A program made the translations under genes and the position numbers. From a virus, in the IMG/VR virus record IMGVR_UViG_3300046170_000505: DNA of 64,000 nucleotides, one strand, 5' to 3'. Shown here piece after piece: positions 26,880 to 54,981 of the stretch. How positions within the stretch are numbered: position 1 is the stretch's first letter; each line of letters begins with the position of its first letter. The notes beneath the pieces are model-generated. The model was not told where the DNA came from. It saw nothing but the letters and a program-made list of their open reading frames with translations, and ran no database searches.

Positions 26880-27337
26880 TTCAAGATTATATTGATCATA
26901 TAACTAAAAAAAGAGATGAAATTGGAGGTCATGCTATATGCCCATACGCCAACGCTTTTTTAAAAAAAACAAACTTCATAGAGTCAAATAATTTCAGAAG
27001 CGATGCCTCAAAAATATTTAGAAGTTTACATCACCCAATGCTTTCTGTTATTTATGGTGATCCTAAAAAATATAATAAAAAATGGCTATGCGATTTCTGC
27101 GAAGAGTATCAATGTTTTGCAACAGGTAAAAATCTTTGGTTAATTTGGGATCATCCAGATCAAATAAATAAAATAAATGGGGTGCAAACAAATAACAATG
27201 AATATGCTATTTTACTAATTCAGAAATTAGATGAAACTAAAAAGTTTTCTAAAAAATTAGAACAGAAAACTGATTATTATAGTTATTGGAGCGCAGGATA
27301 TTTTGAAGAGATAGTAGGAAAAAGAGATTCCTTATGA
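26876..27337 (+). CDS. DUF1415-like hypothetical protein
   Basis: ICPYA; DHP; Q....L...YY..W. Confidence 0.5.
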   Translation: MIQDYIDHITKKRDEIGGHAICPYANAFLKKTNFIESNNFRSDASKIFRSLHHPMLSVIYGDPKKYNKKWLCDFCEEYQCFATGKNLWLIWDHPDQINKINGVQTNNNEYAILLIQKLDETKKFSKKLEQKTDYYSYWSAGYFEEIVGKRDSL

Positions 27338-27504
27338 ACAATAATGAATTCATCTTTCTTTGTGATTTGTGGTGCGAACATAGATATCTTGAAGTTGGAA
27401 ATATCATCAATAAAGAAAAATGGGAACCTAAAAAAGTTGCTGAATTTTGCGCTTATTTGTCTAGGTATTTAGGGGTTAATGAGCTTTATATTCTTTATAA
27501 GTTT

Positions 27505-27681
27505 TTATAACAACTTTCGTTTAACTTTTTTTTCTATCTCATCCCTCTCTTCTTGCGACATATTTTCAAATAAATCTTTAGCCTTCATCCAAGCGTCTAA
27601 CATTCTTCTTCCATTAGCATGCTCAAAATTTTCATCTTCCAAAACCTTAAGCACCAAATAGTGCATAATACTTTCTTTCAT
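27505..27681 (-). CDS. small hypothetical protein
   Basis: GTGTA-N9-ATG gives the start at 27681. Confidence 0.6.
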   Translation of the reverse strand: MKESIMHYLVLKVLEDENFEHANGRRMLDAWMKAKDLFENMSQEERDEIEKKVKRKLL

Positions 27682-27741
27682 ACTAAATAGTACACTCACA
27701 ATAAAGTTGATTTTTAATAATTAGTATATGATAATAAACAA

Positions 27742-28104
27742 ATGAGCAATTTCGATTTAATTTGGAAAACTTTTGAATTTCATTCTTTTGAGGGGTCTAA
27801 GCTCGAAGAAAAACATTACGCAAATATGTTAAAAATTCAATCTTTTAAAGAAAAAGGCTTTGGTTCTGAAAAAAATCTACCATCCTTGAAGCGGAAAATG
27901 CTTAAAGATATCACTATACTTAACAACTGCTACTCAAAACAATTAGATTCTATAAACGAATTAATTAATATCCATGATTCTAAATCTTTCCCCGAAGGCA
28001 TGGAAATCAGCAAAAGTACCTTATGCTCTCTAAAGAACCTAATAGAAACTCTTCTAAAAGAGACTAAAATATATTATTCAGATATTGAAGATTTCTTGAG
28101 CTAA
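27742..28104 (+). CDS. hypothetical protein
   Basis: ORF track. Confidence 0.6.
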   Translation: MSNFDLIWKTFEFHSFEGSKLEEKHYANMLKIQSFKEKGFGSEKNLPSLKRKMLKDITILNNCYSKQLDSINELINIHDSKSFPEGMEISKSTLCSLKNLIETLLKETKIYYSDIEDFLS

Positions 28105-52202: not shown

Positions 52203-52413
52203 TATAAGAGAACGAATCATTCATCATGCAATCGAATTGCGTGAAAAATCAAGAGAAAGCGGAAAAATAATTTCCGAAATTCAAAACGACAAAAAAGCAC
52301 TTGAAGAATATTTCAAGAAGGATGCTGAAGAGAATACAAAGTTTATGACTAGGTTTTTTGCTTTACTAGATGAGTATGAAGCAATCAATGGTAAGATAAA
52401 AACAGATTTGTAA
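52192..52413 (+). CDS. hypothetical protein
   Basis: Overlaps the rIIB stop. Confidence 0.55.
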   Translation: MEFDIRERIIHHAIELREKSRESGKIISEIQNDKKALEEYFKKDAEENTKFMTRFFALLDEYEAINGKIKTDL

Positions 52414-52741
52414 TTTTATAATAAAAATTTATGTTTAATATTTGGTATTGTGGCGCAGTTTTTTTCATTGGATTTCACGATCTAATGTTGTTTCCTGTGG
52501 TCAACTTTCATCACCACTTGGGTAATCACATAAAAGCCTAAGACTCTTTTTATTCATTAATACATCATTGACATATACAATAAGCTATAATACAATATAT
52601 AGATAGAGTAATATACAATGAATTAATAATAGATTATGTGTGAATTGGTGAAAATGTGGGTTGGCAGACTTAATTTTATAAAATATTTTGTTAAATTGTT
52701 TTATTTTATTTACGGAAAAATCGGTACAAACAGAATCAAAT

Positions 52742-54009
52742 CAAATAAAAAAGATTTTAAAATTGATAATGCCGAAATAATTAAACAAAAAATTAATAGA
52801 AATAAATTTGGCTTCCCGACATATAGTGAACCAAATAAATAAAATAAAAATTAATACAAATAGCCCCGAATAATTTAACTTTTTTTTAAGTATAATAAAC
52901 TATTTTAGGGCATTTTAATTAAGTTTAAATAAATAAACAATAATTTTGGGGCGCATTGAGTATCGAAGCACAGAGCGTTGAGCATCTTGAGAATTGGTTT
53001 CGGAATGGATTTAACCAAATATTTGATGACGGATACGAAGTCGAGGATGTTCTTTGGGCAGACGAAACAGGAAAACCTTCGTTTCAAATAAACAAAAAGA
53101 CAGAGCTAAGAGCGATAGTAGATATGATTGCTATAAAAGATCAACCAAATAATTTAGTATTACTATTGCCCCCTTTAATTATAAAAGATTTTGAATCAAA
53201 TAATAATTAATAATTGACAAATAAATATTAATCAGTTATGTCCTAATTCGTTTTTATCTAATGTAGACTTATCGCGCTTTAATTGTTTAAAAATTTCTTC
53301 ACGATCTTCTTGGGTTAGTTCTTCGTAGAATGTATCGACCCAATGTTTTCTTGCCAACTTTTGCTTAACAGGGAAATCACGATGCAAAACAAAATTAGAA
53401 AAGAATCTATCCAAATAAGATAAAACTTCTTGCCTCACATCATATCTTGACCCTTCGGTTGGTTTGTTCTTTAAAGGAGTCCACTCTGAGAAATGTTCAT
53501 ATTCGTCTTCTATCATGCAAATAAGTACACATTGGTATTGACATCGGGGCGCAAATAAATTAATCTATTAATAATGCAAAACAGACAAATAAATAAAGCT
53601 TACCTTCACTATACAGAAATGATGACCATTCTAGGATCACAAAACATAATGCCCAAAGAGGTGTTCTTTAAAATGATTCAAATAATGTTCCAAGATAAAG
53701 ACCAAAATAATTACAATAAAAATTTTGATCAAATAAAATCGTGGCACAAAGCAAAACATAATAATGTAGAAGACTTTAAAACTAAACGACCCCGCCCAAA
53801 TAATAATATAAAAGAAGATTCAGGTGGTGAAAATAAATCCTCCGAAAGCCCACAAAGGCAAATAAACGAAGCGCTAGATAAAATAGTATTCCTTCAAGCC
53901 GAAATAAATAAATACAAGGGGGATGCAGAAATGACCAAATCATTAGAAGGCGCTTTAATTAATCAAAAAAATAAGATCAATAATATTACAAATAATGGTA
54001 AACAAATAA
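52742..54009 (+). repeat. cluster of 16 same-strand CAAATAA heptamers
   Basis: Counted by eye at 52742, 52832, 53085, 53146, 53197, 53218, 53412, 53518, 53552, 53586, 53679, 53730, 53797, 53859, 53989, 54003. Confidence 0.6.
53232..53516 (-). CDS. hypothetical protein
   Basis: GTGTA-N9-ATG start on the minus strand. Confidence 0.65.
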   Translation of the reverse strand: MIEDEYEHFSEWTPLKNKPTEGSRYDVRQEVLSYLDRFFSNFVLHRDFPVKQKLARKHWVDTFYEELTQEDREEIFKQLKRDKSTLDKNELGHN

Positions 54010-54981
54010 AGGGCTTATTTAATAATCAATATTATATTAATCATGTTGATTCAAAATAATTAAGAATGAAATTTTTATTAATAATTTGTTTATTGTTTAG
54101 TGGTTGTGTTTCATCCAAGATGGAGAGCGATATAATTGGTGGTAAAATTTGTCCCTTTTGTTTTCGCGACAACCCTATTTGGAGAAAAAGTTTTTGCCCC
54201 GATTGTTTTCGTGTTGACATGGGTGCGGATGCAAACTATGATTACGCAATGATTAACAACAAACCAAGGAGATAAATTATGAGCAATATAGCAAAATGTG
54301 CAAGAGCAACCGCAGTAATGAACAAAGTAAAGGGCGGAGATCCATTCAGCTTTACCCGAAGGTTCTTAGGGTATAATGAAGCGACAGAAGGAATAATGGC
54401 ACAACAAAGAGAAGCCGATTTAAAATTACAAAAAATTCTTGCTAGTAAAAAAGCAAAGGGGTTAGCATAATGAACTTAGTAAAACCACTAAATAAAAAAG
54501 TTAGTATGTTTGCAACCAATGATGAGTTGTATGAAAAATTAACTAACAAAGAAATTATGACGATTAAATTGGCAAAGCTTGAAGAGTTTGCAGATGATTT
54601 ATATAGGTCTACCACCAGCGAATATAACGCGAAGTTATTTCCCCCTGAAAATAGTTGGTTTAAAATTAAAGGATTATTAAAAGAATTAAATCAATTAAAT
54701 GATTGAGGCAATAATTATTACGATATTAGCTTCAATCTTATTAATCTTTAGAAAAGAACCTTGACACCACCGAATTTATTTCTTAGTATAGCATTATGGA
54801 AACGATAGATTTAACACCAAATTGGGTTACTGCGGTAAAGATTTACATCGAAGTACTCCAAAACAATAATGCCTCAGAAGAGGGTAAACAAAGTGCTAAG
54901 GAAGAATTACTTTACTTAGCAGAGTATGTTGACAATATGCGTCTTGAAAAAAAACTTGAAGCAATCAAAGAAAGTAGTTGA
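53574..54981 (+). other. small hypothetical CDS (53574..54059, 54066..54275 Cys-rich lipoprotein-like, 54279..54470, 54470..54706, 54796..54981)
   Basis: ORF track; leaderless promoters at 53538 and 54761; lipobox-like FSGC and CxxC pairs in 54066. Confidence 0.6.

Follow-up and report, generated by a model that had tools for sequence, protein, structure and literature searches.

Why should some 27 kb of a phage genome be almost free of several short DNA words found so often in the sequence preceding it? The question is raised by a 64,000-nt stretch (the window) of IMGVR_UViG_3300046170_000505, an uncultured phage of ~200 kb, for which an initial annotation, made from the letters alone, had described a regional purge of CCAG/CTGG, and apparently of GGCC and ACGT, between about 27.2 and 54.6 kb. 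We divided the window into regions A (1-27157), B (27158-54614) and C (54615-64000), and compared it with the complete contigs of five related IMG/VR genomes (G001-G005, ~194-214 kb). The purge is confirmed: it is real, highly significant, conserved across the clade and broader than first seen. That it represents the avoidance of restriction sites is strongly supported. The avoidance depends on position, and we consider it probable that it marks a leading compartment which, as in T5 and T7, would be the first part of the genome exposed to the host, by way of ordered entry.

Two null expectations were used, namely a maximal-order Markov expectation for each region, and a synonymous-codon shuffle (300 shuffles) in which the proteins and the regional codon usage are kept. 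CCAG/CTGG exhibits 115 occurrences in region A, against 108 expected, and just the two in region B that had been noticed at the outset (at 32197 and 34376), where 63 are expected under the Markov model and 68.4±6.5 under the codon shuffle. ACGT and GGCC are both missing from region B, as had been suspected, against Markov expectations of 22 and 16 and shuffle expectations of 34.0±5.1 and 13.1±3.1, respectively; ACGT occurs 41 times in region A. For CGCG the corresponding expectations in region B are 19 and 19.5±3.7. None of the 300 shuffles approached the counts observed in region B, which fall far below both nulls. CCGG has no copy anywhere in the window, again as first described, with 13.9 copies expected in region A and 11 (Markov) in region B. 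The GC content remains unchanged across the edges of the purged stretch (0.31-0.34). The extent originally described falls short, as the loss of ACGT and of GC-rich 6-bp palindromes carries on through region C and past the end of the window.

The codon context reveals at which level the selection operates. Proline followed by glutamate or aspartate had been noticed to be written without CCA in region B. Indeed, CCA is never used there for a proline preceding a codon that starts with G (0 of 43, with 32 CCC and 11 CCT), against 28 of 61 such prolines in region A; before a codon not starting with G, CCA is the commonest proline codon of region B (93 of 165). The tryptophan codon follows an NNC codon in 1 of 126 cases in region B versus 18 of 110 in region A, and the threonine codon ACG of region B is found 14 times before a base other than T and never before T. 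Therefore, selection targets the DNA word across codon borders, not codon usage.

The same words are lost in the relatives. Each of the five exhibits a single compartment around rIIA that lacks them, the other ~170 kb carrying them at normal density. Rotating the genomes so that rIIA lies at 60 kb, we measured for each of the 136 4-mer classes the longest stretch without a site, with no prior choice of words. In all genomes, the scan picked only CCAG/CTGG, ACGT, GGCC, GCGC, CGCG or CCGG, and the longest runs overlap one shared stretch at 35-71 kb of the rotated coordinates, the lone exception being a 19-kb tandem-repeat gene of G002 that has no connection with the purge. The depletion is thus not uniform along the genome, the scan returning the same words at the same place. 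The length of the compartment varies from 22.6 to 29 kb across the genomes, or ~13% of ~200 kb.

Does the purge follow the genes or their location? A composite of 16 purged word classes was used to compare gene families, as well as to define edges and tiers. The three window genes at 25718-27337, just outside the left edge, have orthologues inside the compartment in G003 and G005, and other gene families are arranged the opposite way, inside in the window and outside in the relatives. Summed over eight such families, the outside copies contain 60 composite sites in 8.3 kb and the inside copies a single one in 6.2 kb. Therefore, the purge is set by position and not by gene identity, which also argues strongly against an import of the compartment from elsewhere.

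In order to characterize the purged words, we pooled the window compartment with the syntenic compartments of the five relatives (142 kb in total). CCAG/CTGG occurs 3 times in this pool, versus 320 expected from the Markov model or 807 from its density elsewhere. Degenerate 5-bp words are equally affected (ACWGT 0, ACSGT 0, GCWGC 0, GCSGC 2, GGWCC 0 and CASTG 1), and RCATGY, CTGCAG, CCATGG, GCTAGC, GAGCTC, TCTAGA, TTCGAA, AGATCT and others retain 0-2 copies each. With ACNGT, GCNGC, GGWCC, CASTG, RCATGY, RGATCY, CTRYAG and GGNNCC among them, the purged word classes number more than 20. GATC, TCGA, CATG, GTAC, TGCA and GAATTC, taken as control words, are untouched. When only 6-mers of sufficient expectation are considered, the purge has removed 14 of the 34 palindromic words versus 6 of the 1666 non-palindromic ones (Fisher p 2.8e-21), the latter six being for the most part halves of degenerate palindromes (RCATGY, RGATCY, GGNNCC, GRGCYC). 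In addition, the asymmetric word is lost from the window compartment in both orientations (CCAG 0, CTGG 2) despite the one-directional transcription of the zone. The excess of palindromes and the loss of both orientations of CCAG indicate that the words are recognized on duplex DNA, as by Type II restriction enzymes, and that many such agents have been at work.

The list of words also differs among lineages. GCGC is purged solely in G003, G004 and G005, the last two of which have also purged CGCG, whereas the purge of ACGT spares G002 alone. Five genomes lack CCGG altogether; in G001 it is missing from the compartment only, with 139 sites elsewhere. CCTGA, AAGCTT and TGATCA are purged in subsets of the genomes. 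Such lineage-specific lists are to be expected if the hosts differ in their restriction repertoires. The initial annotation had named restriction or a bacteriophage exclusion (BREX)-type defence as the agent. The palindromes and the two orientations of CCAG speak for restriction; the asymmetric target of ~6 bp typical of BREX was not seen among the 1666 non-palindromic 6-mers beyond the six purged ones, and CCAG and CCTGA are words of 4-5 bp. Since most targets are palindromes of 4-6 bp, BREX is unlikely as the main agent.

The borders of the purge are abrupt. The composite density drops from ~13 per kb outside to 0-1 per kb in the fully purged part (tier 1, Table 1). Towards the left edge, ACGT is last seen at 26863, CCAG at 27155 and a composite site at 27617; the 27 kb that follow contain only three composite sites. 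In the relatives, the left edge is located 18-23 kb upstream of rIIA, in a gene context that differs between genomes. The right edge, likewise sharp, falls in every genome at the same syntenic place, marked by the orthologue of 54470-54706. Beyond it, in region C, begins a partly purged tier 2, with ACGT at 0 against 13.4 expected, GCGC at 4 against 14.7, CCAG/CTGG at 12 against 29.7 (codon shuffle), and GC-rich palindromic 6-mers at 0.13 of expectation. AT-rich palindromic 6-mers return immediately, CCAG and GGCC return slowly, and ACGT (in the window also GCGC and GC-rich 6-mers) stays absent for a further 10-12 kb, until the start of the late module; tier 2 of the relatives is likewise 10-12 kb long and ends at the late module. 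The genes of this tier are organized as cassettes bordered by strong terminators and palindromic elements, with weaker -35 boxes. The tiers of the purge track the temporal class of the genes.

Several elements mark the right border. The CAAATAA array (Table 1) has irregular spacing and no extended consensus, and crosses open reading frames (ORFs) and spacers alike. In G001, G002, G003 and G005 the genome-wide densest CAAATAA bins lie just inside the right edge (rotated 63.9-65.9 kb in G003 and G005). The array is a candidate protein-binding cis element, possibly a pause or stop for entry or an origin. Between the right edge and the first twin-dyad element lies the manA unit, a strong promoter at 54978 followed by ~400 nt without an ORF. 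At 58413-63875, all nine GGCC sites of tier 2, together with many CGCG and CCWGG sites, fall inside the GC-rich spacers of repeated twin-dyad elements, the nine GGCC occupying paired positions that match these repeats. Words banned in tier 1 (GGCC, CGCG) are thereby concentrated in repeated elements next door.

The purged stretch had been described as a block of early genes, and its promoters bear this out. A perfect TTGACA -35 box is found on the plus strand 39 times in region B, against 7 times in A and 7 in C, and the fuller form TTGACA-N15-19-TAnnnT is found 17, 2 and 5 times, respectively. Many TTGACA boxes lie 35-36 nt upstream of an ORF start; early genes with a -10 box 6-7 nt before the ATG suggest leaderless messages. 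A Shine-Dalgarno motif is missing from most genes of the window (41 of 47 in region A), the upstream sequences being A-rich. In the five relatives, such promoters, together with small ORFs (median 80-120 amino acids), are confined to the purged compartment. This confinement supports the view that the compartment is an immediate-early module read by the host RNA polymerase. No family was assigned to about 90% of the 97 ORFs in regions B and C; a UvdE repair endonuclease, a RuvB-like ATPase, a phosphatase, a SprT-like protein and rIIA/B form the exceptions. Very acidic ORFs (pI<4.5) amount to 24 of 74 in region B versus 4 of 47 in region A, and may include unrecognized DNA mimics.

Table 1. Positions of features in the window, and occurrences of 4-bp words in regions A, B and C
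Feature	Position	Strand	Remark
Unpurged flank with auxiliary metabolic genes	1..27157		only CCGG avoided
Left edge, sharp	27156..27741		
Tier 1, fully purged early compartment	27158..54614		~74 mostly small ORFs on the + strand; 27.4 kb
RuvB-like AAA ATPase	28982..29914	+	Pfam AAA, RuvB_N/C; 72-76% identical in relatives; near left end of compartment
Sigma-70-type early promoter array (predicted)	30000..54242	+	many ending 6-7 nt before ATG
UvdE-type UV-damage endonuclease	30344..31333	+	PF03851, E 4.5e-31; 68-74% identical in relatives
Residual CTGG no. 1	32197..32200	+	
Residual CTGG no. 2	34376..34379	+	
tRNA-Cys (GCA)	45046..45120	+	inside compartment
rIIA, synteny anchor	48446..50746	+	PHROG 612, E 5.5e-83; relatives 43-62% identical
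rIIB	50901..52202	+	PHROG 609, E 2.8e-56
CAAATAA array, strand-polarized	52742..54009	+	16 of the 52 + strand copies of the window; 0 on the - strand
Tier 2, partly purged cassette zone	54615..64000		continues past window end
Promoter-driven non-coding RNA unit with manA RNA	54978..55440	+	RF01745 at 55161-55370, 81 bits, E 5e-19
CCAG			A 55, B 0, C 7
CTGG			A 60, B 2, C 5
GGCC			A 11, B 0, C 9
ACGT			A 41, B 0, C 0
CCGG			A 0, B 0, C 0
CGCG			A 14, B 4, C 17
GCGC			A 38, B 43, C 4

Why would restriction act on one compartment and leave the remainder alone? A regional purge is meaningful only if sites elsewhere are safe, since clearing 13% of the genome leaves well over a thousand sites in the other parts and would do little to reduce the danger of a lethal cut. 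The simplest model that we can infer is an ordered or stepwise entry in which the compartment comes first, and its early entry is also the best explanation of the pattern at hand. The compartment would be exposed to host restriction enzymes before the protective functions of the phage, presumably early anti-restriction proteins, are made, most probably owing to an ordered or stepwise delivery of the genome that starts with this segment, as known from first-step transfer in T5 and from the transcription-coupled entry of T7-like phages. Selection would then delete every word cut by the restriction systems circulating in the host population, using context-dependent synonymous codon choice as the route of removal. 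Tier 2 would enter once some of these systems have been neutralized, and the remaining ~170 kb once nearly all of them have; a CCGG-directed system, never neutralized in most lineages, would account for the genome-wide avoidance of CCGG. The graded purge (core, tier 2, none) and the co-directional promoters lead us to prefer the sharp left edge (~27.2-27.7 kb) as the end that enters first, the DNA then moving in along the direction of transcription. The 39 -35 boxes all point rightwards, which is inward only if the left edge leads, as we suppose.

Several observations weigh against this scheme. The five ~200-kb contigs, classed as linear, exhibit no terminal repeat, end overlap or long self-repeat, although assemblers collapse terminal repeats. 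The contigs of G001 and G004 break inside the compartment, again with no end overlap, the break in G004, just after the conserved rIIB domain, being uninformative. Homologues of T5 dmp, A1 and A2 are absent from the five relatives, and tblastn searches of the window and the relatives (E<=0.1) returned none. The 97 ORFs of regions B and C include no Ocr, ArdA or member of another known anti-restriction family, no S-adenosylmethionine hydrolase was detected, and a T7-type RNA polymerase (PF00940) was not found in a search made without a positive control. The left edge carries no conspicuous repeat, palindrome or structural element (repeats there are at chance level) and sits within a run of same-strand genes. 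Finally CCAG/CTGG, the strongest target, is non-palindromic, and a literature search gave no 4-bp enzyme specificity for it. Because neither dmp/A1/A2 nor Ocr/ArdA nor a T7-type polymerase was found, the likeness to the T5 and T7 systems is functional, not familial. A bolder version of the proposal combines an undescribed stepwise delivery unrelated to T5 A1/A2, a first segment that, at 22-29 kb, would be the largest known and would end at the polar CAAATAA array, and a loss of CCAG/CTGG that reports a widespread host defence of uncatalogued specificity; we put this combination forward tentatively, and would sooner doubt than assert it as a whole.

The exposure of the compartment may have a cause other than its order of entry. 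The whole genome could enter at once, its bulk shielded by co-injected coating proteins or by an unrecognized modification, and the early compartment be left naked for the host RNA polymerase. A shield of this kind accounts equally well for a purge that falls on the host-promoter zone, and the lack of visible terminal repeats suits it, as it needs no defined genome ends. As to the protection itself, searches of the five genomes with PF00145, PF01555, PF02086, PF00303 and PF01702 returned a C5 methylase in G002 only (one of five genomes), and no N4/N6 or Dam methylase, ThyA-type hydroxymethylase or TGT/DpdA, so that the bulk has no methylase or base-modification pathway that we could find. The bulk is also restrictable in principle, since CCGG is avoided genome-wide, and the graded tier 2 fits a gradient of time or entry better than an on/off cover. 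We know of no case in which ~170 kb are coated and 27 kb spared. On balance we regard the shield as unlikely. The words might instead be targets of the phage itself, whose nucleases, brought in with the DNA or quickly made, would destroy the host DNA at these sites, the site-free compartment surviving in the cell while the bulk is still outside. During the first-step pause of T5 the host DNA is broken down, yet the first-step DNA is spared by a mechanism that is unknown (bioRxiv 10.1101/866236; PMC10644984). Applied here, however, self-immunity of this kind would demand an implausibly large and fast-changing arsenal of nucleases for more than 20 word classes that vary among lineages, the sole annotated nucleases of the window being UvdE repair enzymes. 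As it would still require stepwise entry, we consider it improbable.

Two further explanations were considered. The compartment might have been imported from a lineage growing on hosts with other restriction systems, the pattern being left over from that history. Phage early regions are known to be mosaic, and the edges are sharp; but the purge affects the syntenic compartment of six genomes with an rIIA only ~50% identical, orthologues are purged or not according to location, and the GC content does not differ from that of the flanks. The word lists moreover differ by lineage within one compartment, and the compartments are not near-identical DNA. We give this history very little credence. 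Even less can be granted to selection at the RNA level, against endoribonuclease sites in early transcripts, or to a regional mutational bias. The genes of the zone are transcribed one way, and among the ribonucleases of phages and hosts several cleave at short words, in keeping with the former; yet asymmetric words are lost in both orientations, palindromes dominate the purged set, and intergenic DNA is purged as well. A simple mutational bias is at odds with the untouched GATC, TCGA, CATG and TGCA. Avoidance of restriction sites in a first-entering compartment thus remains the reading that we prefer.

The closest parallel is the first-step-transfer region of T5 (Tequintavirus, Demerecviridae), a pre-early block of mostly unknown function that is transcribed by the host polymerase and depleted of sites. 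In T5-like phages, Type I and Type II restriction systems act only via sites in this region, as does CRISPR in T5, and its distal border is repeat-rich (PMC10644984; bioRxiv 10.1101/866236). The CAAATAA array, the non-coding RNA and the twin-dyad elements would be the counterparts of that border in our phage, without sequence likeness to the T5 iss. The initial annotation had invoked the scarcity of restriction sites in the first-injected DNA of T5. A control with T5 agrees in direction, GC-rich palindromic 6-mers reaching 0.36 of the expected number in its first-step region versus 0.55 in the next 40 kb, and the effect is weaker than in the window and its relatives, where the values are 0.00-0.32 in the compartment versus 0.73-0.85 elsewhere. 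The purge is here far deeper, extending to 4-bp words, and is followed by a graded second tier. The block measures 22.6-29 kb (~13% of ~200 kb), in contrast to 9.6 kb (7.9% of 122 kb) in T5; dmp/A1/A2 homologues and visible terminal repeats are lacking, and the matches of the terminase (TerL) are not to T5.

In the Autographiviridae, host promoters are oriented along the direction in which the DNA enters, and protection is expressed from the leading region; in Murciavirus, a Type I motif counts only in the first-injected region (Martinez-Cazorla et al. 2025, PMC12455610). Unlike these ~40-kb podoviruses with their single Type I motif, the present phage of ~200 kb avoids at least 20 Type II-like words, and no Ocr, S-adenosylmethionine hydrolase or phage RNA polymerase of the kind known from T7 was detected (the polymerase search again having no positive control). 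Genome-wide avoidance of palindromes in phages (Rusinov et al. 2018, PMC6286503) involves the same agent and the same loss of short palindromes. CCGG alone follows this classical pattern, in every genome but G001; the other words are all subject to regional avoidance, and whole-genome statistics would largely miss them. A further likeness is found in the plasmid DNA transferred by conjugation, the first-entering part of which is the most exposed and carries counter-defence; that DNA enters single-stranded, in contrast to the duplex of a phage.

To our knowledge, experimental proof that restriction selects hardest on first-injected DNA is limited to T5-like and T7-like phages on a few hosts. 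The same footprint now appears in an unrelated, uncultured clade of ~200-kb phages, far deeper and in three tiers. If the proposed reading is true, stepwise or ordered genome entry would be more widespread than these examples, and possible with a first segment of 27 kb. Compartment-wise k-mer scans would then predict, for uncultured phages, the first-entering end and the location of the immediate-early genes, and the list of purged words would be a read-out of the restriction repertoire of the host population, including an uncatalogued asymmetric target of 4 bp. Statistics of avoidance over whole genomes would underestimate the pressure that restriction exerts on phages.

Regarding the phage itself, no close relative at the DNA level was found among cultured phages. 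Its TerL exhibits at best 23-27% identity to terminases of cultured phages, the matches being to siphoviruses of Firmicutes and not to T5, and this weak identity places it in a deep uncultured clade. Twenty IMG/VR contigs contain an rIIA 43-62% identical to that of the window. Nine of them break off less than 5 kb away from rIIA, to its left or its right, which exceeds chance; this suggests that strain-level hypervariability, or a change of coverage in the early region, breaks the assemblies. Hints on the host are weak, consisting of the little use of Shine-Dalgarno motifs, the sigma-70 consensus promoters and the manA RNA.

Among the genes of the compartment, rIIB is unevenly conserved. Its N-terminal 268 amino acids are 86-89% identical in the five relatives (rotated 62.4-63.2 kb), against only ~50% for rIIA, and its C-terminal part is not conserved among the relatives. 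The UvdE gene has a second paralogue outside the compartment (1264-2367, plus strand). PHROG matches named "endonuclease" were considered as candidate self-restriction nucleases and rejected, as they correspond to UvdE repair enzymes and not to site-specific restriction nucleases. Close to the second UvdE gene, the phage encodes a transfer-messenger RNA at 2406-2802 (plus strand, Rfam 132.6 bits), the tag of which, as predicted by ARAGORN, ends in GLL and is not of the LAA type. The tandem repeat of G002 occupies ~19 kb at 145-165 kb of its contig; it is hexanucleotide-periodic, with units of 24-66 nt and a GC content of 0.45, and almost devoid of A/T-rich 4-mers. The repeat is crossed by open frames of 1263, 1622 and 1297 amino acids and is probably the gene of a giant low-complexity protein.

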